A stretch of DNA of 58,634 nt from a virus. Within the stretch, counting starts at the first letter, position 1, and every line of letters starts with the position of its first letter. The notes under the pieces are model-generated. The model saw nothing but the letters and a program-made list of their open reading frames with translations. It made no database searches and was not told the DNA's origin. The stretch lies in IMG/VR virus record IMGVR_UViG_3300045988_080144, one strand, 5' to 3'. This document shows positions 1 to 58,634 of this stretch, piece by piece. The position numbers and the translations under genes are program-made.

Positions 1-79
1 ATCGGGGTACGAATCTTGAAGGAGGTTGTGCGAAATGAAAGTAAGAGGCGACAATGCGCCGGCAAATGCGTTCTCGCTG
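1..79. repeat. Terminal overlap, copy 1 (identical to 58556-58634)
   Basis: Read by eye: 79/79 identical to the window end. Confidence 0.95.
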
Positions 80-93
80 GAGGAGCAGCCTGA
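1..93 (+). CDS. 3' end of the DGR reverse transcriptase ORF (continues 57551..58634 across the circular junction)
   Basis: 58556 (= position 1) is a codon start in the RT frame. Frame 1 stays open until TGA at 91-93. Confidence 0.85.
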   Translation: MGVRILKEVVRNESKRRQCAGKCVLAGGAA

Positions 94-2954: not shown

Positions 2955-3791
2955 TCAATAATCCTCCTCAATACATTCGTCCGCTTCGGTGTAGTATTCT
3001 CCGTCGTAGCCTTTTCCCATAACCTTGTCGTAGCAATCGAAGCAGACCAACCGGAAAGTGATGCCGTGGCAGTCGCGCGTAAAGGTCATGTCCTCCCGCA
3101 GAAACTCGCCCTTGCAGACCGGGCATTCAATCTTCCGCACTTCCTCCCACCCGGTGTCTTCCAAATCGTCGAAACCGTTCCAGACGTCCTCCATGACGAT
3201 CTGCTTTTTCTTATCGACGATCAGACACGCAGCTTCGTCGCCGAACTTTTTGCTTTCGAGCAGAAACAGGTGCGCGGTAAGTGTCTGTGGCTTGCCGTTC
3301 ACGTCCGGGGTAATCTGAAAATCACCCTCGTCAATGATGTACCACGTTCCCTCGTGGCCATCAATCTTAATATTGTCGCTAATCCAACTCAGCATGTGCC
3401 ATCGTTCCGGTTCTCTCACGATTGCCCACGTGCTGAGCGAATCCTGCTTATGCGCGAAATCTTCGATGGCCTCAACCGTTCCACAAGTATCGCAGATGTA
3501 GCAGCCGACACGGCGGCTGAGGGCATTGCGCGTGACACTCTCTGCGTCCATTGTCATCTTCCCGCAGCGGGGACACGCGAAGTGTCCGCTCTGCTTCTTG
3601 GCAAATTCGGCAATGAGAATCCGCGCCAGCGTTTCCTCGTTTGGTTCGATACTTTCGACTTCCCATGCCTCGCGGCCGTCGGCTTTGGCTTTTTCTCGTG
3701 CCTGCTGCTGATCCACTGCGAACACGGCGGCGGTGATCCGCTGGCCGTTGTCACGATTGCGATAAGTGACTGTCCAAGATTTGTTCTCCAT
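2955..3791 (-). CDS. Hypothetical protein with two CxxC...CxxC zinc-ribbon-like motifs (278 aa)
   Basis: AAAGGAG RBS precedes ATG 3791. Motifs CPRCG...CDTCG and CPVC...CFDC. Confidence 0.55.
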   Translation of the reverse strand: MENKSWTVTYRNRDNGQRITAAVFAVDQQQAREKAKADGREAWEVESIEPNEETLARILIAEFAKKQSGHFACPRCGKMTMDAESVTRNALSRRVGCYICDTCGTVEAIEDFAHKQDSLSTWAIVREPERWHMLSWISDNIKIDGHEGTWYIIDEGDFQITPDVNGKPQTLTAHLFLLESKKFGDEAACLIVDKKKQIVMEDVWNGFDDLEDTGWEEVRKIECPVCKGEFLREDMTFTRDCHGITFRLVCFDCYDKVMGKGYDGEYYTEADECIEEDY

Positions 3792-3802
3792 GACGGCTCC
3801 TT

Positions 3803-4033
3803 TCACTCGATAGCAGCTTCGATGCTGCTGATGGCTTCTTCCAGACTGTCCACGGCGCTGGAAAGATTGTCGCAGGCTTCGTCGGCCTTTTCATAGCGTT
3901 CGCTTTCCTGCATATTCTCCGGGATGTTGTCTCGGTATTCTTCTTCCTCGGCCTGAAGGTCTTCGAGGCTGCCTTTCAGCTCCTCCAACTGGTCAATGAT
4001 GGCCTGCAAATTCTTGCGGCGGATTTTATTCAT
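3803..4033 (-). CDS. Small acidic coiled-coil protein (76 aa)
   Basis: Complete ORF. Product LEELKGSLEDLQAEEEEYRDNIPENMQESERYEKADEA. Its stop overlaps the next gene's RBS. Confidence 0.55.
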   Translation of the reverse strand: MNKIRRKNLQAIIDQLEELKGSLEDLQAEEEEYRDNIPENMQESERYEKADEACDNLSSAVDSLEEAISSIEAAIE

Positions 4034-47824: not shown

Positions 47825-48148
47825 ATGGGCTACAAAATCACCATGTCGGAGATCGGGCCGATCAGCCTGAACGAAACCGACCCTGTAAAATCCATTCTGC
47901 AGAACGTGTCCATCATCCTGCGGACGATCAAAGGCTCCTGCCCGATGTATCGCGGCTTCGGTATTGACGCTACCTTGATCGACCGCCCGATTCCTGCGGC
48001 AAAGGTGCTGCTTTTCTCTCAAATCCGCGAGGCCATTGAGGAATATGAGCCGCGCGTCCGTGTCAAGAGCGTCGATTTTGATACGCAGGAAGAAATGCAG
48101 GGCGTTCTAAGCCCTATCGTGGAGGTGGAAATCGTCGATGAGTCGTAA
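47825..48148 (+). CDS. Baseplate wedge protein, GPW/gp25 family
   Basis: Product ILQNVSIILRTIKGSCPMYRGFGID...IREAIEEYEPRV. Confidence 0.7.
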   Translation: MGYKITMSEIGPISLNETDPVKSILQNVSIILRTIKGSCPMYRGFGIDATLIDRPIPAAKVLLFSQIREAIEEYEPRVRVKSVDFDTQEEMQGVLSPIVEVEIVDES

Positions 48149-49514
48149 TACCGAATTTCAGTTTGTTTCGACCGACGCTGCGGAAATCACAAATTTTCTG
48201 ATTACCGTTTATGAAAACTTGACCGGGGTGAGCGTCAGACCGGCCAGTCCGGAAAAGCTGTTCGCGCAATGGGTAGCCAGCGTCATCATTCAGGAGCGGG
48301 TCTACAACAACTACACCGCAAATCAGAATATTCCGAGCCGCGCCGAAGGCAAGAACCTTGACGCGCTGGCAGAACTGTACTATCTGCAGCAGCGCCCACA
48401 GGCAAAACCTGCTTACTGCACGGAACGGTTTACGATCTCCGAGGCGCAGACGTTCGCCATCCTCGTCCCCAAGGGGACGCGCGTCACAGACGCCAGCAAC
48501 ACCCTGATCTGGGAGACCGTCGCCGATGCCTACATCAGCGCAGGCGATACCTACGTTGACACCGCCATCCGGTGCCAGACGGACGGCACGGTCGGCAACG
48601 GCTACGCCGTCGGCCAGCTCAACGTGATCGTTGACGTGTTCGACTACTACACGTCCTGCACCAATATCACGACTTCCGACGACGGTTCGGAGATCGCCAG
48701 CGACGAAGAATTCTACGAGCTGATGCGCGAATCCATGTTCGCGTTTTCGACGGCCGGCGCGGTTGGCTCCTACATCTACCACGCGAAATCCGTATCTACG
48801 GAGATTGCTGACGTACAGGCCGTTCGCCCGGCTGTCGTAAAGAAAGTGACGCTTGATCTCTATACGAAAGGCGGCGTCAAGTACGCTTTTTGGGGCGGCG
48901 ACACCATCGACCTGTCCTCTCTGGCGGTCTACGCCAAGGGCAGCAGCACGGCTGCGAGCACCGACACAGATTATACCGTCACCTACGAAAACGGCCTGCT
49001 GCAAGTTGCAATCGCCGCAGACGGCGCGCTGGCAAGCGCGAGCCAGATCGACGTGTCGCTCACCTTTGACGGTGCCGGGCACGTCGATATTTATGTCCTG
49101 ATGAACGACGGAACGATTGCCACGACGGAGATCAAGAACGCCGTCCTTGCCGCCTGTAACGAAAGCAAGGTGCGGCCGCTGGCCGATTATGTCAGTGTCA
49201 AAGACCCCGGCCTCGTTTCGTACAATATCGACTTCACCTACTATGTCCCCACCGACACGACACTCTCCGGTGCGGCGATTCAGGAAGCCGTAGACGCAGC
49301 CGTCGAGGAATACATCGCTTGGCAGTCCGGCAAGCTCGGCCGCGATATTAACCCGGATAAGCTGCGCGACCTCCTGTTCCACACGGGCGTCAAGCGGATC
49401 GTGCTGCGCTCCCCGACCTACAAGGTGCTGGAGGGCGGCAAAAACAACGCCGCGCCGCAGATTGCAAAGCTGGGAACGAAAACAATCGTGAACGGAGGCT
49501 ACGAGGATGAATGA
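48138..49514 (+). CDS. Baseplate J-like protein
   Basis: 458 aa, after the gp25-like gene; J-family layout. Confidence 0.7.
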   Translation: MSRNTEFQFVSTDAAEITNFLITVYENLTGVSVRPASPEKLFAQWVASVIIQERVYNNYTANQNIPSRAEGKNLDALAELYYLQQRPQAKPAYCTERFTISEAQTFAILVPKGTRVTDASNTLIWETVADAYISAGDTYVDTAIRCQTDGTVGNGYAVGQLNVIVDVFDYYTSCTNITTSDDGSEIASDEEFYELMRESMFAFSTAGAVGSYIYHAKSVSTEIADVQAVRPAVVKKVTLDLYTKGGVKYAFWGGDTIDLSSLAVYAKGSSTAASTDTDYTVTYENGLLQVAIAADGALASASQIDVSLTFDGAGHVDIYVLMNDGTIATTEIKNAVLAACNESKVRPLADYVSVKDPGLVSYNIDFTYYVPTDTTLSGAAIQEAVDAAVEEYIAWQSGKLGRDINPDKLRDLLFHTGVKRIVLRSPTYKVLEGGKNNAAPQIAKLGTKTIVNGGYEDE

Positions 49515-50175
49515 GCAGTACGGCCTCACGGTTGAGAACCTGCTGAACGTCCTCCCCGATGTGCTGCGGCAGGATGAAAAAATGCTCGCGCTCGCAACCG
49601 GCGTCGCGGAGATCCTGACGGCGCGGCCGGCCGAGATTGAGCAGAATATGCTCTATCAGCACATCGACACTCTGCCAGAAGATCTTCTCGACCAGCTTGC
49701 GCACGACTTCGGCGTAAGCTGGTGGGACAACGACTGGGATATTGAGCAGAAGCGCGCCACGTTCCGCGAGTCCTGGCACGTTCGCCGCCACCTCGGCACG
49801 AAGTACGCCGTCGAGCTGGCGTTGTCCACTTCGTTCGGCTCCGGTAAGGTGCAGGAATGGTTTGAATATGGCGGCGAGCCGAATCACTATCGCATCTTTG
49901 ACGTTGACATCAGACAGGTCAACGACAATATCCGCACGTTCCTGCAGATCCTCGAAGTTGTCAGCCGTAAGAGCGCGGTGCTGGACAGTATTCGTGCAAT
50001 TTCCGTCCGTGAGCTGATTCTGTACTTCGGCGCGGTTATGAGCGTCACGAAGAAATTCAAGCTCACCACGGGCGAGGTCAATACGGACATTGACATCATG
50101 GGCGACGAAGCCGGGAACGCCCTGTGCGACTGGGACGGCGGTCTGATTATGATGGATAAGGAGGCAACGGTATGA
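49507..50175 (+). CDS. Tail protein I-like (P2 gpI / XkdU class)
   Basis: Product LLNVLPDVLRQDEKMLALA...LLDQLAHDFGVSWWD. Confidence 0.65.
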   Translation: MNEQYGLTVENLLNVLPDVLRQDEKMLALATGVAEILTARPAEIEQNMLYQHIDTLPEDLLDQLAHDFGVSWWDNDWDIEQKRATFRESWHVRRHLGTKYAVELALSTSFGSGKVQEWFEYGGEPNHYRIFDVDIRQVNDNIRTFLQILEVVSRKSAVLDSIRAISVRELILYFGAVMSVTKKFKLTTGEVNTDIDIMGDEAGNALCDWDGGLIMMDKEATV

Positions 50176-51221
50176 CACACTGGTTGACCCCGGATGGGTA
50201 CAACGTCATGCTTCGCGGGCTCATGGGCGACGCGATCAAATTCACACGCATCAAATACGGCAACGGTACGCCGGGTGACGGCGCGAACGATCTGAAGAAC
50301 CCGTTGCTCTCTCTGAAAATTGCTTCTGCGACGCGCAGCGAGAAGTACGTCACACTGTCTGTGTCGTTCAAGAATGTCGAGCTGGAGATCACCGGCTTCT
50401 GGGCAACCGAAATTGGCATTTACGTCGAGGACCCCGACGATTCCACGAAGGAACTCTGCTATTGCATCTGGGAGGAAACAGAGGTCGAGAAAGCCGACTA
50501 TATCAACCCCAACGTCGAGCGCCTGCTTGCATCGCAGTACGACTTTGTGGTGTTCGTCAGCGAGGCCAAAAACGTGTCTGCGGCGCTTGGTGAAACGCTG
50601 GTCTACGCAACCGTTACGGAACTGAACAATCACAAAAACGACAAGAACAATCCACACAAGGTGACCAAGGAGCAGATCGGGCTTGGAAACGTGGAAAACA
50701 AGGCTCTGATCGACCAGACGCCCACCTTTGCGACAGCAAAGGAGCTGTCGGATATTTCATCCGGCGAGAAGATGGGGTCTATCCTCGGAAAGATTGCAAA
50801 GGCGCTGTCACTGCTGAAATCGCACCTTTCCGACTTCAACAATCCGCATCAGGTAAAAGCCGCCGATATTGGCGCCGCTGCGTCGACGCACTCGCACAAC
50901 GCAAATGACATCAACGATGGCACGGTCATTGTGCAGCGCGGTGGTACTGGCCGCAACGAGTGGACGAAGAACTGCATCGTTTTCGCGGACGGTGAGAAAT
51001 CGCTTGGGCAGGTCTCGGCACCATCGGAGGTTTCGCTTCTGGCGCAGGGGCCTGATTCCGCCCCTGTCTTTATGAAGTTGTCCAGTCTGGCGTTGTTTGT
51101 CACCGGCAACACGCCGCCGACGCAGAAGAATCTTTTCTGGATTGATCCGACGCCTGTTACCGGCGGCTTGAAGTATTGGAACGACACCGACTGGGAGCAC
51201 GTTCCTGTTGCTTATTCTTGA
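50172..51221 (+). CDS. Tail fibre protein (proximal)
   Basis: Tail-collar-like N-terminus; NPHKVTKEQIGLGNVENK and NPHQVKAADIGAA...HSH fibre motifs. Confidence 0.7.
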   Translation: MTHWLTPDGYNVMLRGLMGDAIKFTRIKYGNGTPGDGANDLKNPLLSLKIASATRSEKYVTLSVSFKNVELEITGFWATEIGIYVEDPDDSTKELCYCIWEETEVEKADYINPNVERLLASQYDFVVFVSEAKNVSAALGETLVYATVTELNNHKNDKNNPHKVTKEQIGLGNVENKALIDQTPTFATAKELSDISSGEKMGSILGKIAKALSLLKSHLSDFNNPHQVKAADIGAAASTHSHNANDINDGTVIVQRGGTGRNEWTKNCIVFADGEKSLGQVSAPSEVSLLAQGPDSAPVFMKLSSLALFVTGNTPPTQKNLFWIDPTPVTGGLKYWNDTDWEHVPVAYS

Positions 51222-51239
51222 TCTTAGGAGGACTCTCGC

Positions 51240-51533
51240 ATGAAAATTCAGATTGAAGCCGAACTGTCCAATTACATCGAATCCCTGCATTATGACCGTA
51301 ATTCCATTCAGGAGCTGCTGCTCATGGCGTCAAAGCAGGGCTTGAAGGACACCGACGCATACAACGCATGGATGAAGGACTACCTCGGCAAGAGCAAGGA
51401 ATACGAGATCGCAAAAGCGACGCTGGAACGTGAGTTTATCATTCCTGCCGTCGGCAATGCAGCGGTTGACTGGGTGCTTGATTTCTCGACCGCCACGGTG
51501 ACGGTGACGCCGCGGGAGCAGACCGATGACTAG
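51240..51533 (+). CDS. Hypothetical protein (97 aa), fibre-module accessory
   Basis: Complete ORF. Its stop overlaps the rSAM gene start. Confidence 0.45.
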   Translation: MKIQIEAELSNYIESLHYDRNSIQELLLMASKQGLKDTDAYNAWMKDYLGKSKEYEIAKATLEREFIIPAVGNAAVDWVLDFSTATVTVTPREQTDD

Positions 51534-52842
51534 GCCACAGGAAACCTTCACCGATATGCTGGCGCGGCTTTTCCCCATGCCGGGTATCCAGCTTGGCATC
51601 AACTCGCCGCACTCCAAGTGCATTACATTTCAGGTGACGGAAGACTGCAACCTGCGCTGCAGCTACTGCTATCAGGGCTGCAAGACGCACCGGAAGATGT
51701 CGCTTGAAACCGCCAAGGCCGCCGTCGATATGCTGCTCGCCGCAGACGAGCGGACAAATCAGTACATCACGTCCACGGAGGTTGCCGGGGTCGTTCTTGA
51801 CTTTATCGGCGGTGAGCCGCTGCTGGAAGTCGAGCTGATCGACCAGATCCTCGACTACTTCGTGGCGCAGACCTTCCGCCTGCATCATCCATGGGCGACG
51901 CGCTGGAAAGCGTCGATGTCCACAAACGGAACGCTGTACTTCCGCCCGGAGGTACAGCGGTTTTTGGATAAGTGGGCAAAGCACCTGTCGCTCTCCATCA
52001 GCATTGACGGAGATAAGCAGCTCCACGATTCCTGCCGCGTCTTCCCGGACGGCTCTGGCAGCTATGATCTTGCTATCGCGGCCGCGAAGGATTACATGAC
52101 CAAGGGAAACGCCCTTGGCTCGAAGATGACGATTGCTCCCGGCAACGTCGATTATCTGTACCACGCAGTAATCGGTCTGCTGGACGCGGGGTATCGGGCG
52201 ATCAATCTGAACTGCGTTTACGAAAAGGGCTGGACGCTCGACCATGCGGCTACACTCTACACACAGCTCAAACGGCTCGCCGATTTCGTCCTGCTCTCGG
52301 ACGAGCAGCCGTATCTGTCAATCTTCAGCGAAAGCGTCGGCCATCCGCTTCCGGAGGACGATAATCAGAACTGGTGCGGCGGTACGGGGCTTATGCTGGC
52401 GGTTGACTGCGATGGCCTGTTCTTCCCGTGCCTGCGCTACATGGGAACCTCCCTCGGCCATGAGCAGCGGCCCTATGCCATCGGCGATCTGGAACACGGC
52501 ATCAACGTTCTTCCGGAACATCGGGCGCGGGTGGCAGAAATGGCCGCAGTCACGCGGCGCAGCCAGTCCACCGACGAATGCTTTGCGTGCCCGATCGCGT
52601 CCGGCTGCTCTTGGTGCAGCGCGTACAACTACCAATGCACAGGGACTCCGGATAAGCGCGTGACGTACATCTGCCCGATGCACAAGGCCCGCGTCCTGGC
52701 GAACGCCTACTACTGGAACAAGCTGCACCGCAGGCAGGGCGAGAGGACACGGTATCGGCTGGATATTCCCGACGATTGGGCGCTTGAGATCATCTCAGAT
52801 GCAGAGCTGGAAATGCTCAAATCTCTATCCAAGGAGGGCTGA
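51526..52842 (+). CDS. Radical SAM / SPASM-domain peptide maturase (anSME-like; CXXX-repeat-target type)
   Basis: CNLRCSYC (CX3CX2C) near the N-terminus. C-terminal auxiliary-cluster cysteines WCGG...CDGLFFPC...[20 protein letters not shown]...ICPM. Confidence 0.85.
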
Positions 52843-52844
52843 TT

Positions 52845-53567
52845 ATGGCATATATCGAGGCTGAACGCTTCGCGGCTCTGAAAGCGCGTGTCAAGGCCGA
52901 GTGCCTGCGGCGCTGCCATACCGGATCTGTTGCGGAATACGGCGGCGAAAAATACGAATACACGAACAGCCCCACCGAAGATCACACCGTCGACGTGGAG
53001 CATTATGAGAAGCTGGCGCTTCCGCTGTCGAAGATCCACAGCGAGAAAGTGCCGAGCCTTGACGGCCGCAGAATCGTGTTTGACGAGGACATCACCGAGT
53101 TTGAAGCGGCGTTGACGCTCTTTGAAACACGCCCCATGACGGACAAGACGCGGGGTGACTGTGAAACGTCCTGCACGGGAGCTTGCTACACCGGCTGTTC
53201 TGGAGACTGCACAGGCGGCTGCGAAACGACGTGCTCCGGAGAATGTCAAGGTTCCTGCACGGGCTGCGGAAGCGGCTGTGCGAACACCTGCGAAGGCTCC
53301 TGCTCCGGCGGCTGCTATGGCTGCGGCGGCAACTGCACGGGAGGCTGCTCTGGCTCCTGTGATGGTAGCTGCTCTGGTTGCTCTGGTTCCTGTTCTGGCG
53401 GCTGTTCCAGCAGTTGTTCTGGCGGCTGCAAATCGTCCTGCACAGTGACCTGCGGCAACACTGGCTGCGTCGGCTCGTGCCTTGGCCTTTGTTCTGCCGG
53501 CTGCACGACCTCGTGCCAGACGTCCTGCGGCTATTGCGGGACAAACTGCACAGCCGTATCGAAGTAA
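52845..53567 (+). CDS. CXXX-repeat protein: 105-aa N-terminal domain plus 135-aa core with 34 Cys
   Basis: GGAGGG RBS. The core is encoded at 53160-53564. Inter-Cys spacing is 3 residues in 28 of 33 intervals (hand count). Confidence 0.8.
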
Positions 53568-53579
53568 GGAGGTAGCCCT

Positions 53580-54128
53580 TTGGAAATTGCAAGTAAATAC
53601 GAAATCGCTGCGGCGAACCTCGCAATCGCTTTGCAGACGGACACGGTTTCCGTCGAGCAGCGAAGTGAGCTGCGAGCGGCAATCGGCAGCAGCATCGACA
53701 AACTCGTCGACGCGCTCAACATGATTATCGTCTGCTACAACAAGCGAATGTACGCTGGCGAGATCGCGCCCGAAAAAGCCGCAAAGTGCGTCAAGGCAGA
53801 ATACGCCGCCATCGGCCTTTCCAACGTGGTCGCATACGATTATTTCTCCGCGGCGGTCGGTGCGTTCTTCACGCGCAAAACCCTGATGGCGCTGTCGACC
53901 GATGAAAAGCTCGCGTGGGTGAAAACGGTCTTCGAGCAGAACGAACGCTGCGGCTGTCAGCGCGTCAAAGATGCGCTGTTCATCTACTGCCTGCGGCTGC
54001 TGTCGCACATGGGCATCGTCACAGCGGATCTCTCTTTCACGAACCTCGTCATGCGCGAGATCAACGCCATCACGGAAGACCGAAAGAACGCCGCGATCAT
54101 GCCGCAGGCGCTCGTCACGGAATTGTAA
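53580..54128 (+). CDS. Helical partner protein of the rSAM/CXXX cassette (182 aa)
   Basis: AAGGAGG lies 7 nt before TTG 53580. No recognisable domain. Confidence 0.55.
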   Translation: MEIASKYEIAAANLAIALQTDTVSVEQRSELRAAIGSSIDKLVDALNMIIVCYNKRMYAGEIAPEKAAKCVKAEYAAIGLSNVVAYDYFSAAVGAFFTRKTLMALSTDEKLAWVKTVFEQNERCGCQRVKDALFIYCLRLLSHMGIVTADLSFTNLVMREINAITEDRKNAAIMPQALVTEL

Positions 54129-54139
54129 GGGGTGATCGT

Positions 54140-55183
54140 ATGGCAGTAGAAAACGTAAATTCCAAGCCGATTGCCGCTTCTGCGGCGATTGCCGACTTTA
54201 TCCTCGCATCGATTGGCGGCAAGGTTCGCCGTGTTCCGATCAGCACCCTTGCTGAAACACTCACCGATGCCGAAGTTGAGCTTATCAGCGCCGCTGCGTC
54301 TGCGCTGGTGTCGGCTGCGGGCAGAGCCTGTTATATCGGCACAAATGAAAACTGGTACGTATGGGATGGCGCACAGGGCGCGTTCGTCGATTCGGGGTAT
54401 CCATCGCGCGGCACACAGGGCGAACCCGGCGTAATCTTTACGCCGCACGTGACCGAAGCCGGTATTCTGAGCTGGACGAACAACGGCGGTCTTCCGAACC
54501 CAGAACCGGTCAGCCTGCTCGGCCCTGCGGGCGGCGTGACTTCGTTCAATAGCCGTTCCGGTGCGGTCGTCCCGAAAAACGGTGACTATACCGCAGAGAT
54601 GGTCGGAGCGGAAGAAAAAGACGCCGTCAAGAATCACAACGAGTCCGAGACCGCGCACAAAGATCTGTTCAATGCGAAACTGAATAAGGACGGCGACGGC
54701 GGCACTCTGAAACCTACCTTCACGCAGTCCGCAACGAGAACGCAGCTTGAATCCGGTCTGGAAATGAAAGTCCTTCTTGGACGCATTATGAAGTGGCTGG
54801 CCGACCTCGGCTCTGCGGCGTTCAAAGACAGCGGAAATTTTGAATCCGCAGGTGCTGGTGACGCAGCGGTTTCCGCGCACAACACCGCTGTGCAGGCCCA
54901 CGCTGACCTGTTTGCAAAAAAAGCCGGCAAGGGCATCGCGTTCACGCTCACACTTTCTGTCGCAGGATGGTCGAATCTTGCACAGACGCTGGAAGATGCG
55001 CGCTTCCTCGACGCCGAGTATGCCTATATCGTGACGCCGACGGCCGACAGCCTCACGGCGTGGGGCGACGCAGGAATCCGCGTCGGTGACATTACGGAGA
55101 ACGGCAAAATGCCGTTTACCTGCACAGATACGCCGGCAAGCGCAATCACAGTAAATATTTACAGAGCGGAGGTCGCACAATGA
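54140..55183 (+). CDS. Tail fibre protein (347 aa)
   Basis: ATG 54140. Short collagen-like GTQGEPG; fibre-like His motifs ETAHKDLF and AVQAHADLF. Confidence 0.55.
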   Translation: MAVENVNSKPIAASAAIADFILASIGGKVRRVPISTLAETLTDAEVELISAAASALVSAAGRACYIGTNENWYVWDGAQGAFVDSGYPSRGTQGEPGVIFTPHVTEAGILSWTNNGGLPNPEPVSLLGPAGGVTSFNSRSGAVVPKNGDYTAEMVGAEEKDAVKNHNESETAHKDLFNAKLNKDGDGGTLKPTFTQSATRTQLESGLEMKVLLGRIMKWLADLGSAAFKDSGNFESAGAGDAAVSAHNTAVQAHADLFAKKAGKGIAFTLTLSVAGWSNLAQTLEDARFLDAEYAYIVTPTADSLTAWGDAGIRVGDITENGKMPFTCTDTPASAITVNIYRAEVAQ

Positions 55184-57051
55184 GCAAAGTATTTCAGATG
55201 CTCGGCGGAAGCGGCGGCAGTATCAAGCTCGCGTCCATTGAGATCACAACGCCGCCCACAAAGACCGCCTACAAGGCTGGTGAGCAGTTTTCGACGGCTG
55301 GCATGGTTGTCAAGGCGACGTATTCCAACGGCGCCACGCTGATTGCAACAGGCGTATCGGTCGAGCCAAGCGGCGGTCTGGAAGCAGGTCGCACCAGCGT
55401 CACCATCCGATACACGGAGGGCGGCGTATCCTGCACCGCAACACAGGCGATCACAGTCACCAAGACGAATGTGACCGTGCCGAGCCAGAGCGGAAGCCTG
55501 ACCTATTCAGGCAGCTCGCAAAGCCCGGCATGGTACAACTACGATACGACGAAAATGACGCTCGGCGGCACGACCAGTGGCACGAACGCCGGCAATTACA
55601 GCGCGAAGTTTACGCTGAAAGACACAGCCCTCTATCAGTGGGCAGACGGCTCGACCGCTCCGAAAACCGTATCGTGGAAGATCGGCAAGGCAGATGGCTC
55701 ACTGACGCTCAGCAAGACTTCGATCAAGCTGGAAGACGGAAAACTGACAGATTCTTTCACGGTCACACGGCTTGGCACAGGAACAATCACAGCCGTGTCC
55801 AACCGCCCCGATATTGCCAGTGTTTCCATTTCGGGAAATATTGTGACCGTCCACAGCGTCGATGAAAACTCCGGCACGGTTACGATCACGGTTTCCGTTG
55901 CCAGCGACACGAACTACAACGCGCCGGCAAGCAAGACCTGCACCGTGTCGTGCGTGTTCGTGACAATCTTCGGCGTCTGCTGGACGTACAGCAACTCCTC
56001 TCCGGCTCTTTCCCGCCTGACGCCGAGCAACGACCCGAACGGCTATGTCAATGCCGCCGTGTCCTCGGAGCCGAGCGCTGCCATCGGCACAGGCGCTGGC
56101 AGCTCTCCATTCGACGCATTCATGCCGTGGCAAGGCATGGAGGAATACAACATCATCAACGGCGCGGTGTCGTACAAAAAGGGACAGTCCGGATTCTCCC
56201 GCACGTCCTACGATACGATGGTCTTTATCCCTGAGTTTTACTACAAGATCGTCTATAACAGCAGCCAGAGCAAGATCTATTACTACGTTGCAAACGCGCC
56301 GTTCACCGGCTTTGCCAAGCACCCCGGTTCCGGTCGCTATGTTGGACGATACAATACGATCTCCGGCTATGCCTCCAAATCTGGTGCAAATCCGCTGACG
56401 AGCATGACGCGCGCCACAGCCCGCGCAAACTCCCGGAACAAGGGCAGCAAGTGGCAGCAGTACGATTATGCGTCGTGGTGCGCGGTCTGGCTGCTCTATC
56501 TCGTCGAGTATGCAAACTGGGATAGCCAGAGCAAAATCGGCAACGGTATTGTCGGCAATTCCTCGCTGCAGAAGACGGGTACGACGGACAGCATGACCTA
56601 CCACACCGGCACGGTCGCTTCCGCCAGGACAGGCTATGGCGGCGTACAGTATCGCGGCATTGAAAACCCGTGGGGCAATGTCTATGACTGGATTGACGGC
56701 ATCAACTTCAACAACCGCGCGGCTTATATCTGCACCGATCCGTCGAAGTACGCAGACGATACGTCCACCAACTACACGGCGGCTGGGCTCAGCCTGCCGA
56801 GCAGCGGCAATATCAAAACGCTCGGAAACTGCACGGCCCTCCCATGGGCATTTATTCCGACGGGAACCGGTGGCAGCGGCACGACCTACGTGCCAGACTA
56901 CGTGTACTCGTATTCTGGCTGGTGTGTTCTCTGCGTCGGTGGCTACTGCAGGTATGATGCTGCGTACTGCGGCCTGTTCTTTTTCAATGGCAACTACGAT
57001 TCGTCCGGCGCGGGCTCGAGCATCGGCGCGCGCCTCCTTTACGTCCCCTAA
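55180..57051 (+). CDS. DGR target: distal fibre/receptor-binding protein with Ig-like N-terminal repeats and a C-type-lectin/FGE-like C-terminal domain carrying the VR
   Basis: ATGA overlap at 55180. The C-terminus ...YSGWCVLCVGGYCRYDAAYCGLFFFNGNYDSSGAGSSIGARLLYVP matches the TR. Confidence 0.85.
   Translation: MSKVFQMLGGSGGSIKLASIEITTPPTKTAYKAGEQFSTAGMVVKATYSNGATLIATGVSVEPSGGLEAGRTSVTIRYTEGGVSCTATQAITVTKTNVTVPSQSGSLTYSGSSQSPAWYNYDTTKMTLGGTTSGTNAGNYSAKFTLKDTALYQWADGSTAPKTVSWKIGKADGSLTLSKTSIKLEDGKLTDSFTVTRLGTGTITAVSNRPDIASVSISGNIVTVHSVDENSGTVTITVSVASDTNYNAPASKTCTVSCVFVTIFGVCWTYSNSSPALSRLTPSNDPNGYVNAAVSSEPSAAIGTGAGSSPFDAFMPWQGMEEYNIINGAVSYKKGQSGFSRTSYDTMVFIPEFYYKIVYNSSQSKIYYYVANAPFTGFAKHPGSGRYVGRYNTISGYASKSGANPLTSMTRATARANSRNKGSKWQQYDYASWCAVWLLYLVEYANWDSQSKIGNGIVGNSSLQKTGTTDSMTYHTGTVASARTGYGGVQYRGIENPWGNVYDWIDGINFNNRAAYICTDPSKYADDTSTNYTAAGLSLPSSGNIKTLGNCTALPWAFIPTGTGGSGTTYVPDYVYSYSGWCVLCVGGYCRYDAAYCGLFFFNGNYDSSGAGSSIGARLLYVP
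56900..57039 (+). repeat. DGR variable repeat (VR)
   Basis: 128/140 identical to 57280-57419. All 12 differences lie at TR adenines. Confidence 0.9.
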
Positions 57052-57060
57052 TGGGGGACC

Positions 57061-57076
57061 GGGGGCCGCAGCCCCC
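57061..57076 (+). promoter_or_regulatory. GC hairpin downstream of VR (DGR homing-enhancing hairpin candidate)
   Basis: GGGGGC-CGCA-GCCCCC, 21 nt after the VR end. Confidence 0.5.
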
Positions 57077-57141
57077 GTGGGCTTCCGTTTTCAGAGCGGC
57101 ACGTCTTACGCTCTGGCGCGGCAGCGCCATTCCCTATATAT

Positions 57142-57170
57142 CCGCGCGAAGCGCGGCGCGTATATTTTTT
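57142..57170 (+). terminator. Terminator candidate after the target gene
   Basis: ccgcgc-gaa-gcgcgg stem, followed after 9 nt (cgcgtatat) by a T6 run (57165-57170). Confidence 0.4.
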
Positions 57171-57279
57171 CAAAATAACGCATTTCGTTATTTTCTCCCG
57201 TTTTCAGACCTTCCCAGCGCATAGACAGTATAATTCTCGACGGGATTGTCTGCGCAGCTTGTGCGGTGTTTTGGGCTTC

Positions 57280-57419
57280 ACGTGAACTCGAATTCTGGCT
57301 GGTGTGTTCTCTGCGTCGGTGGCTACTACAGGAATGATGCTGCGAACTGCGGCCTGTTCTTTTTCAATGGCAACTACAATTCGTCCAACGCGAACTCGAA
57401 CATCGGCGCGCGCCTACTT
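57280..57419 (+). repeat. DGR template repeat (TR)
   Basis: Non-coding copy of the VR. AAC/AAT-rich in the VR frame (28 adenines). Confidence 0.9.
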
Positions 57420-57550
57420 GTTTGTATGCTCCATTTCTTTGCGCAGGCTCTCCCACACCGCTTGGTGAAAATATTGCCGCTACAGGACGGGCTTTAGTAC
57501 GGCCGAAAGGTATCTGGAAAGACCCCGATGGCAAACAAGGAGCGAGGCAT
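57280..57550 (+). ncRNA. DGR TR plus spacer RNA template region
   Basis: The TR is followed by a 131-nt spacer up to the RT start. A TATAAT box lies at 57229-57234 upstream. Confidence 0.55.
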
Positions 57551-58634
57551 ATGCCAAAAAGAAAAGGATTCCTGTATGAATGGATGTGTGACAAAGAACA
57601 CATCCGCGAAGCCATTGTGTTTGGCGCGAAAGACAAACACGATCGGCGCGACGTAAGACGGGTGCTGGCCGACGTGGACGGCTTCACGGACCGCGTCTAT
57701 GATCTTCTGCAGACGCAGACTTTCGCCCCAGCCCAGCCGAAGAAGCGCAAGATCTTCGACAACAGCAGCCGAAAGTGGAGAGAGATCGAATACGTTCCGT
57801 TCTTCCCCGACGGCATTGTCCACACGTTGATGGTCTTGGCGGCGGCGCCGGTCTTCCTGCGCGGGATGAATTACTGGTGCTGCGCATCAGTACCGGGACG
57901 CGGCGGAAAGCACGCGCTTCGGCGCTGCAAGCGTGTCATTCACCACTGCAAAAAAGGAAGCCGGTACGTCTGCAAAATGGACGTTCACCACTTCTACCAT
58001 TCTGTCGACCGCCGCAAGCTGATCTGGATGCTGGCGCACAAGATTAAGGACAAGAAGTATCTAAAGCTGACGTGGGAGATCCTGCAAACCTGCGAACAGG
58101 GGCTGGCCATTGGCTTTTTCATCTGCCAGTGGCTCGCAAATTTCTATCTTGAGCCGCTCGACCGTTACATTACGACGCTCGACGGTGTGAAGTACAGCGT
58201 GCGATACATGGATGATATTGTCCTCTTTGGCCCGAACAAAAAGAAGCTGCACCGTGCGCGGAAAGCGATTGCCGAGTATCTGCAAAAGCGGCTGCGGCTG
58301 CAGATGAAAGGTAACTGGCAGGTGTTCCCCTTAAAAGCACGGCCGCTGGATTACGTCGGGTATCGCTTTTACCGCGATTATACTACCATGCGCCGAAAAA
58401 ACTTCCTGCGCTTTACGCGCCAATGCCGCAAGGTGCGCAAGAAGATCGAGCGTCACCAGCGGATCGCGTATCGGACGGCATCGGGGCTTTTGAGCCGGAT
58501 CGGCCAGCTCAAGCATTGCAATTCCGCTGCGGCGCGGAAAAAGTATGTTGACCCCATCGGGGTACGAATCTTGAAGGAGGTTGTGCGAAATGAAAGTAAG
58601 AGGCGACAATGCGCCGGCAAATGCGTTCTCGCTG
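57551..58634 (+). CDS. DGR reverse transcriptase (runs off the window end; full ORF 365 aa ending at position 93 after wrap)
   Basis: AAGGAG lies 8 nt before ATG 57551. Motifs KMDVHHFYHSVD, GLAIGFFICQWLANFYLEPLD, VRYMDDIVLFG and LDYVGYRF. Not in the ORF track because no stop occurs within the window. Confidence 0.9.
   Translation, partial: MPKRKGFLYEWMCDKEHIREAIVFGAKDKHDRRDVRRVLADVDGFTDRVYDLLQTQTFAPAQPKKRKIFDNSSRKWREIEYVPFFPDGIVHTLMVLAAAPVFLRGMNYWCCASVPGRGGKHALRRCKRVIHHCKKGSRYVCKMDVHHFYHSVDRRKLIWMLAHKIKDKKYLKLTWEILQTCEQGLAIGFFICQWLANFYLEPLDRYITTLDGVKYSVRYMDDIVLFGPNKKKLHRARKAIAEYLQKRLRLQMKGNWQVFPLKARPLDYVGYRFYRDYTTMRRKNFLRFTRQCRKVRKKIERHQRIAYRTASGLLSRIGQLKHCNSAAARKKYVDPIGVRILKEVVRNESKRRQCAGKCVLA
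58556..58634. repeat. Terminal overlap, copy 2 (identical to 1-79)
   Basis: 79/79 identity, read by eye. Confidence 0.95.

Follow-up and report, generated by a model that had tools for sequence, protein, structure and literature searches.

The 58,634-nt virus record IMGVR_UViG_3300045988_080144 of IMG/VR (hereafter the window, to whose whole length all coordinates refer) very probably carries a diversity-generating retroelement (DGR), functional now or until very recently and free of known accessory genes, in a temperate P2-like phage of uncultured human-gut Oscillospiraceae. The DGR target is a 623-aa open reading frame (ORF) at 55180–57051 (+) that ends in a variable repeat (VR), followed on the same strand by a template repeat (TR), a structured RNA and the gene for a reverse transcriptase (RT). 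Every sequence-level hallmark of a DGR that we tested was present, save for one variant residue in the RT signature. The element is an ordinary DGR of an Avd-less lineage and a fresh example of a well-known type of system. It is not to be filed with the Avd-dependent, Architecture B type represented by Bordetella phage BPP-1.

A repeat finder returned one direct repeat of 140 nt, with copies at 56900–57039 (VR, +) and 57280–57419 (TR, +), a spacing of 380 nt and 91% identity. By base-by-base count the two copies are identical at 128/140 positions, and the 12 mismatches fall on 12 of the 28 TR adenines and on 0 of the 112 other template bases (P=4.2e-10 that 12 random mismatches all fall on A, hypergeometric). 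Seven of the changes from TR to VR are A>G, four are A>T and one is A>C. In the VR frame, codons 574–620, they replace N with Y four times and with G twice, N with D, N with S and Y with C once each, and leave one silent change, CTA>CTC. Both edges of the homology are abrupt, and no third TR copy or second VR was found anywhere in the window. An earlier reading of the sequence alone (the original prediction) had reported these repeat positions, their spacing and identity, the restriction of the mismatches to adenines and the codon changes, all of which we reproduced exactly. It had also counted all 12 mismatches as products of mutagenesis, which stands for 11 of them.

The remaining one, the silent 3'-most mismatch between TR A57416 and VR C57036, is the same in 24/24 elements, comprising the window and 23 close relatives whose TR and VR were aligned. 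Because it is fixed in all of them, we count this position as a marker of the type found at the initiation of mutagenic homing (IMH) site of the VR and its TR counterpart (IMH*), and not as a product of mutagenesis. Without it, 11 diversified positions remain among 27 mutable adenines. The marker lies just past an 11-nt G/C run, CGGCGCGCGCC, which is present in the VR at 57024–57034 (+) and in the TR at 57404–57414; a G/C run with an adjoining fixed TR/VR difference is the arrangement described for Bordetella IMH/IMH* (PMC5758913). The mutable part of the VR, delimited from the repeat finder, the base count and the relatives, spans 56900–57022. In the TR the mutable adenines extend across 17 codons, 10 of them AAY, which cannot yield a stop, and this template could encode ~10^16 proteins.

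Two hairpins follow the VR in the DNA fold. Hairpin 1 (57043–57059, +; GTCCCC-TAATG-GGGGAC) is kept in relatives, and hairpin 2 (57060–57077, +; CGGGGGC-CGCA-GCCCCCG) has a GC-rich 7-bp stem and a 4-nt loop. Hairpin 2 is conserved across the clade: two loci (L037, L086) have the compensatory change GGGGGU/ACCCCC, one (L078) has the loop GGAA, and we regard this hairpin as a candidate target-recognition hairpin or cruciform. The asymmetry between IMH and IMH* and the GC-rich inverted repeat after the VR that characterize DGRs are both present here at the sequence level. The loop of hairpin 1 contains the stop codon of the target gene, TAA, and the coding sequence thus reaches with its 3' end into the putative target-recognition structure, of which it forms a part.

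The same pattern extends to related phages. Of 80 IMG/VR loci encoding a relative of the RT, 52 had sufficient upstream DNA, and a TR/VR pair with nearly A-only mismatches and the same layout was found in 50 of these 52. The 24 close elements contain 10 distinct TRs versus 23 distinct VRs, and nine genomes with one common TR have nine different VRs. Pooled over these elements, 311 mismatches lie at A versus 25 elsewhere. Lineage-specific TR changes at positions other than A recurred in the VR of the same genome in 90/92 cases, and a T private to the window occurs in both the TR (57320) and the VR (56940). Such concerted evolution together with A-specific divergence is, as judged from aligned sequences, the signature of continuing TR-to-VR transfer. 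One relative (L034; TR 3730–3869, VR 3350–3489) has the window-type T at repeat index 40 of its VR and C in its own TR, a rare non-A mismatch that points away from mutagenesis and to a chimeric assembly or to phage lineages having recombined.

At the protein level, a search with the target returned >3,600 relatives, and the three nearest clusters at 90% identity hold 1,630, 2,448 and 277 distinct sequences. In an alignment of the target with 31 cluster members of full length, the columns of aa 574–620 had a mean entropy of 0.90 bits versus 0.12 elsewhere, and the AAY-templated codons displayed 7–11 different residues each. A megablast search of 48000–58634 found no nucleotide-level relative among deposited phages. 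It is very unlikely, in our judgement, that the cassette in this genome is the frozen relic of a lineage that once diversified. We have a single consensus sequence of this genome, and some DGRs of Faecalibacterium phages lack read-level variation in culture (PMC11792537), which would suit a relic; but the RT, TR, VR, IMH-like end, hairpins and the two RNA elements described below (RT-18 and the bracketing helix) are all intact, the private TR mutation was copied into the VR, and nearly all of the close elements carry a VR of their own.

The RT ORF begins at 57551, 131 nt past the TR, and carries the YMDD and IGFFICQWLANFYL motifs listed in the original prediction. Its codons 1–361 (57551–58634, +; ORF and Pfam) run past the end of the window. 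Positions 1–79 are identical to 58556–58634, forming an exact 79-nt terminal direct repeat; the window is therefore a whole phage genome of 58,555 bp, either circular or with terminal redundancy, and the genome junction falls within the RT gene. The end of the gene lies across this junction at 1–93 (+), with the stop TGA at 91–93, and the resulting ORF of 365 aa is unbroken and includes YMDD. The description of the DGR as complete holds only in the accessory-free sense; an Avd gene was not detected, and the RT is whole only across the circular junction.

The Pfam match of the RT is RVT_1. Classification of the RT by hidden Markov models, which had been proposed as a check, placed it far under the cut-offs of all curated NCBIfam models for group II intron, retron, Drt and Abi RTs, the top match being a group II intron RT model with 79.8 bits against a cut-off of 300 bits. 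Its best relative among solved structures is 8ub7 chain A (E=3.8e-17), which we take to be the Bordetella RT, bRT, with group II intron RTs next (2.5e-12). The alignment with bRT runs through the IG...Q...AN(F/V)Y and YMDD motifs. The nearest RTs of deposited phages, with identities of at most 38%, belong to LBR48, the Butyrivibrio phages Arawn and Idris, FP_Epona, crAss-like phages, ANMV-1 and Bordetella phages, and A-biased TR/VR pairs were confirmed beside the RTs of FP_Epona (13/13), Arawn (5/5) and BPP-1.

An ordinary duplication or gene conversion with a chance A bias, lying beside the RT of a retron, group II intron or defence system, would account for a group II intron model being the top NCBIfam match. 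However, that score is far below its cut-off and bRT is the best solved relative, no intron RNA domains are present and the flanking RNA is RT-18, and the A-only pattern (P=4e-10) recurs in 50/52 relatives. The A-only pattern, the RT-18 flank and the relatedness to bRT effectively refute this explanation, which we consider scarcely credible. The claim at the core of the original prediction, a DGR with adenine-specific transfer from TR to VR, was upheld by the mismatch statistics, the RT relationships, the constancy of TRs and hypervariability of VRs, the concerted evolution and the target site.

The DGR RT signature has been published as [I/V/L]GxxxSQ, and its first residue (I181 in bRT) promotes adenine mutagenesis (PMC7826257). 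Residues 185–191 of the present RT (58103–58123) read IGFFICQ, in which the Ile and Gln are retained and Cys takes the place of the BPP-1-type Ser. The form with Cys, IG(F/Y)(F/Y)ICQ, is that of RT-18-clade members in which the motif was found (among L001–L086); the RT-4 clade and L078 keep Ser.

The account given in the original prediction does not include an RNA component, which here consists of the RT-18 element and a helix that brackets the TR. Between the target gene and the TR unit, a terminator-like hairpin with a T-run is marked at 57143–57170 (+) by a consensus scan alone. Further downstream, a TATAAT box (57229–57234, +) lies 7 nt before the GGGA that opens the bracketing helix, and occupies the same relative position in 9/10 divergent relatives, with TTTAAA in L037; judged by its conservation, it may be the –10 element of a promoter for the TR-RT RNA. 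The 5' strand of the helix (57242–57255, +; GGGA..GTCTGCGC) pairs with the 3' strand (57441–57454, +; GCGCAGGC..TCCC). Covariation was scored in nine divergent elements including LBR48. The 12 pairs of the helix were 99% paired, with 1/108 cells broken, and 5 pairs had compensatory double changes. In 500 column shuffles neither the pairing nor the covariation score that we observed was ever reached, and pairing was 32–60% when the register was slid. A U-rich, unstructured linker of 21 nt (57420–57440, +) separates the TR from the 3' strand of the helix.

Immediately after the helix, the RNA at 57456–57542 (+) matches the Rfam family RT-18 (RF03021; Weinberg et al. 2017) over its full length (model 1–84 of 84) with 76.4 bits against a gathering threshold of 41.3 (E=2e-13); the family has no assigned function. 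It consists of a CACC-GCUU-GGUG hairpin, an AAAAUA linker and a long stem with a UAGUA/GAAA internal loop of the sarcin-ricin type, and its 3' end includes the ribosome-binding site of the RT, AAGGAG (57537–57542). RT-18 is found at the same position in all 11 sampled carrier relatives, whose RTs are 36–99% identical, and in Lactobacillus phage LBR48, and 6/17 predicted pairs show compensatory changes in the 11 relatives. An RT-4 RNA takes the equivalent position in FP_Epona (124 bits), in a clade of Lachnospiraceae prophages, where the score is just below threshold, and in Arawn, where it is weaker still (49 bits). The RT-4 and RT-18 families show weak cross-similarity, and their matches overlap at L088, which suggests that the two are related. 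Matches to RT-4 or RT-18 among the loci include L102:4654-4770, L043:3875-3971, L088:3877-3973, L101:4867-4976 and L100:702-777. All of the RNA helices were revealed by comparative analysis alone. The TR is thus flanked by structured RNA of both kinds that we looked for as a mark of DGRs, a duplex and an element between TR and RT. The authors who found the RT motifs connected RT-10 alone with a DGR and offered speculation on the rest (PMC5737381), and a later survey noted a sarcin-ricin-type loop in RT-18 and has RT-10 in the same table of matches (PMC13085918).

Comparison with the prototype, the BPP-1 DGR (mtd-avd-TR-brt), shows what is common to both and what is particular to the element described here. 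In both, the 3' end of a gene in the tail module bears adenine-specific TR/VR differences, the IMH-like end is rich in G/C and includes a fixed difference between TR and VR, a GC-rich hairpin follows the VR, and the RTs are homologous. The order of RNA modules is also shared: a duplex of the TR flanks, a short tetraloop hairpin, an A-rich single strand and a long stem with a GAxUA/GAAA loop. In the cryo-EM structure of the Bordetella complex, the TR is followed on its 3' side by the Avd-binding stem-loop, the primer and then a duplex termed 'cPRT Stop', formed by the upstream and downstream flanks of the TR and accompanied by a short hairpin with a tetraloop and by adenosines left unpaired; next come a thumb ring of single-stranded RNA and a long stem, interrupted by interior loops, to which bRT binds (bioRxiv 10.1101/2023.10.23.563531). 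The conservation survey of that study took in Avd-containing DGRs only (bioRxiv 10.1101/2023.10.23.563531). Unlike BPP-1, which has avd, the present element has no detected avd. The RNA family also differs, being RF03022 Phage_DGR (formerly RT-10), between TR and brt, in BPP-1 and RT-18 here, as do the carrier, a P2-like myovirus of Firmicutes, and the target, which has Ig-like domains and a larger variable domain with no sequence similarity to Mtd. Where BPP-1 has its Avd-binding stem-loop (Sp 3–33), only the 21 nt of the linker are available. By analogy with Bordetella, the linker is the predicted site of the priming nucleotide; it is too short for an Avd-binding stem-loop.

These correspondences lead us to a tentative proposal, to which we give a little less than even weight: RT-18, and probably RT-4 too, could be the scaffold that binds the RT and serves priming in cis in the Avd-independent DGRs of Firmicutes phages, a reduced form of the Bordetella RNA. 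With the same degree of reserve, we suggest that the pared-down RNA would have kept the 'Stop' duplex, the tetraloop hairpin with its adenosines and the sarcin-ricin RT-binding stem, and would have lost the Avd-binding stem-loop.

Several observations weigh against a functional, accessory-free DGR with a diversified tail protein. The RT signature IGFFICQ departs from the canonical form, and the promoter scan found no full sigma-70 promoter match. Folded as a single sequence, the whole TR-spacer RNA was no better than shuffles (z=+1.2). Pairing of the linker with the 3' end of the TR, which could have defined a primer, was tried and rejected, as short helices (UAC/GUA, GCUU/GAGC) occur in some relatives and are inconsistent across the clade. 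The activity of this genome's own copy is deduced from its lineage, and both the placing of the target as a distal fibre subunit of the virion, with its ligand, and its role in host range are deductions as well. Finally, neither Avd nor any other known accessory gene was detected in the genome scans.

No Avd was present among the 25 Pfam and NCBIfam families listed for 84 small ORFs, and none appeared at E<=1 among nine small basic ORFs; an acidic ORF, also scanned, had no family match. The 229 nt between the target stop and the TR hold a single small ORF without a family match. The Bordetella bRT is inactive without Avd (PMC6182149). Because bRT needs Avd and no Avd was found here, an Avd-independent mechanism is assumed for the present element.

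The acidic ORF (35–415, +; 126 aa, pI 4.05) overlaps the RT gene at its 3' end by 59 nt. Every RT-18-type relative, even at 35% identity, keeps this overlap, as do 7/7 further contexts, and small ORFs also overlap the RT 3' end in FP_Epona and LBR48. This ORF may be a CH1-like accessory candidate or a phage gene at the XkdW position, since its linkage to the RT is inseparable from phage synteny. Its conservation and those of the overlapping small ORFs would fit a DGR that needs a protein cofactor after all, either the product of this ORF or an Avd-like protein supplied by the host in trans, as would the inactivity of bRT alone (PMC6182149) and the CH1 accessory proteins of Avd-less DGRs, which are likewise small and acidic (PMC5758913). 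Yet the ORF sits at the place that XkdW-like genes hold ahead of XkdX and holin in Firmicutes phages, and shared synteny would be enough to account for its linkage; the proteins encoded there in distant DGR clades are unrelated, and the acidic protein shows no similarity to any known family. Moreover, the RNA leaves no room for an Avd-binding stem-loop, and no trans-encoded avd was found in genomes with Avd-less DGRs (Wu et al., PMC5758913). We consider the need for such a cofactor unlikely and retain the accessory-free DGR as the preferred reading.

With target, TR and RT on one strand and no avd, HRDC, MSL or recognised CH1, the element corresponds to Architecture A1 (Wu et al. 2018, PMC5758913), with the caveat that the acidic ORF at 35–415 is a possible unrecognised accessory gene. 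Architecture A makes up 29% of curated DGRs, RT Lineage 3 was separately reported to be avd-less, and Avd-independent retrohoming has already been proposed for Avd-less elements (PMC5758913). Lineage 3a comes from Bacteroides, in contrast to the Oscillospiraceae host here.

Cultured Firmicutes phages with DGRs, namely LBR48 of Lactobacillus, FP_Epona, Roos, Pioen and Lagaffe of Faecalibacterium and Arawn of Butyrivibrio, have the same gene order as the window phage, which runs from baseplate J and P2 gpI-like through a fibre or tail protein, TR, RT, a small ORF and an XkdX-like peptide to holin and endolysin. LBR48 has both RT-18 and the same bracketing helix, whereas FP_Epona, Arawn and the Lachnospiraceae prophages have RT-4 in place of RT-18. 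Their DGRs otherwise differ from the present one, with RT identities of at most 38% and no nucleotide similarity. DUF6273 has been reported for the targets of Roos and Pioen and was not detected by Pfam in the target here. Population-level variation of the VR has been reported for Faecalibacterium phages (PMC11792537).

In the target protein, Pfam found Big_3 at aa 25–88 and nothing else; there was no Pfam match to FGE-sulfatase, DUF6273 or lectin domains, and sequence comparison with solved structures gave no match. Over its full length the protein is covered by PHROG 5302, 'tail protein' (E=9e-124). An AlphaFold model built from 57 homologs (predicted local distance difference test score, pLDDT, 92.9) has three beta-sandwich domains and, after them, an alpha/beta domain with the VR at its end. 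In this predicted model, the three Ig-like beta domains occupy ~aa 17–269 and the variable-protein-like domain with the VR occupies ~aa 270–623. The best match of the model among solved structures is TaqVP, the variable protein of the Thermus aquaticus DGR (PDB 5vf4; E=1.5e-9, target-normalised TM-score 0.48, 15% sequence identity), an example of the C-type-lectin/FGE-like fold typical of DGR targets. In TaqVP the VR likewise lies at the C-terminal end of the domain; the target here has three extra N-terminal Ig-like domains. The predicted fold thus supports the original claim of a C-terminal variable domain like those of other DGR targets. Other solved matches were arrays of Ig domains, including adhesins and S-layer proteins, and among predicted viral structures strong matches were obtained to many gut-phage proteins. 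The automated names of these structural relatives include 'tail collar fiber protein', 'tail fiber protein' (crAss-like cr55_1) and 'sulfatase-modifying factor enzyme-like'.

The target is the last gene of a module ordered tail tube, GpU, tail X, gp25, Baseplate J, P2 gpI and fibre genes, and the lysis genes come next. A tail location is therefore likely. The earlier designation as a distal tail-fibre protein stands as far as the tail module is concerned, given PHROG 5302 and the place of the gene at the end of the baseplate and fibre genes; a distal fibre goes beyond the evidence. An ORF at 50172–51221 belongs to tail-fibre PHROG families. Directly upstream of the target lies the gene for a 347-aa protein (54140–55183, +), whose stop overlaps the target start codon (ATGA, 55180–55183) and which has no Pfam or NCBIfam match and a weak PHROG match. 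Its sequence (GPAGG...SFNSRSGAV...DYTAEMVGA) resembles phage fibre repeats, and it may be the fibre shaft that bears the DGR target.

The diversified protein, with its three Ig-like domains and a lectin-like domain, might instead be an adhesin on the virion surface, not at a fibre tip, that binds something other than the entry receptor, for example mucus or glycans. The N-terminal 260 residues are Ig-like arrays that match adhesins and S-layer proteins, Pfam recognised no trimeric fibre shaft or baseplate-attachment domain in the target, Ig-domain DGR targets of Faecalibacterium phages have been likened to Hoc-like decoration proteins (PMC11792537), and separate fibre-like genes precede the target (50172–51221 and 54140–55183). 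We nevertheless consider an adhesin of this kind rather unlikely: the target comes last in the baseplate and fibre module right before the lysis genes, belongs over its full length to a PHROG with the label tail protein, and has structural relatives in gut phages that bear tail-fibre names, if by automated annotation.

Taken together with the Bordetella system, these results suggest how a DGR diversifying a tail-module protein would work here. The RNA would start just past the TATAAT box (~57241), and transcription would continue through the TR, RT-18 and the RT gene. Pairing of the TR flanks, which is shown by covariation, would hold the 140-nt template in a closed loop beside the RT-18 fold. 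By analogy with bRT, the RT would bind this scaffold, prime in cis from 57420–57440, copy the TR and misincorporate at A, and the cDNA would replace the VR of the target gene from 56900 to ~57023. Directionality could be provided by the IMH-like G/C run, the A57416/C57036 difference and the GC hairpin at 57060–57077; the features themselves are present in the sequence, and their role is a presumed one. The outcome would be up to ~10^16 variants at 17 codons of the C-terminal, putatively ligand-binding domain of a tail-module protein, and the benefit would most likely be adsorption adapted to variable receptors on the host surface. Programmable host-range switching, as put forward in the original prediction, is an extrapolation from BPP-1.

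Gut-phage DGRs are common and well described, and one more changes little. The lineage is abundant, with thousands of natural VR variants and ~35 near-identical IMG/VR contigs, and amounts to a natural experiment on residue selection. The Avd-less class gains a testable RNA model, composed of the bracketing helix and RT-18 with no Avd-binding element, and the orphan Rfam family RT-18 gains a likely function. If the model is true, an RT of ~365 aa and ~300 nt of RNA would form a complete machine for targeted mutagenesis; the acidic ORF might be a new cofactor. Present tools built on the Bordetella element need Avd, and a two-component system of RT and RNA would suit engineered targeted mutagenesis.

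The genome is that of a temperate P2-like phage with a contractile tail. Its phage traits include HTH repressors, an excisionase and a holin, and an integrase-like ORF was identified solely by reading its translation. In 'Firmicutes bacterium CAG:170' and in metagenome-assembled genomes of uncultured Oscillospiraceae, from human guts, prophage copies bearing the RT were found on contigs as long as 207 kb.

Within the tail-fibre module, a block at 51526–53567 (+) includes the gene for a radical SAM/SPASM peptide maturase, which scores 474 bits versus a cut-off of 350 bits for the 'CXXX-repeat target' family (NCBIfam TIGR04115). A limited literature search found no paper on a CXXX-repeat radical-SAM system. 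The protein encoded directly after the maturase has 240 aa, with 34 cysteines at aa 106–235 in its C-terminal half, and 29/33 of their spacings are exactly 4 residues. One relative, L095, lacks the block of maturase and Cys-rich protein. Judging by their sequences, the pair looks like a system for modification, in the style of ribosomally synthesized and post-translationally modified peptides (RiPPs), of a possible structural tail protein.

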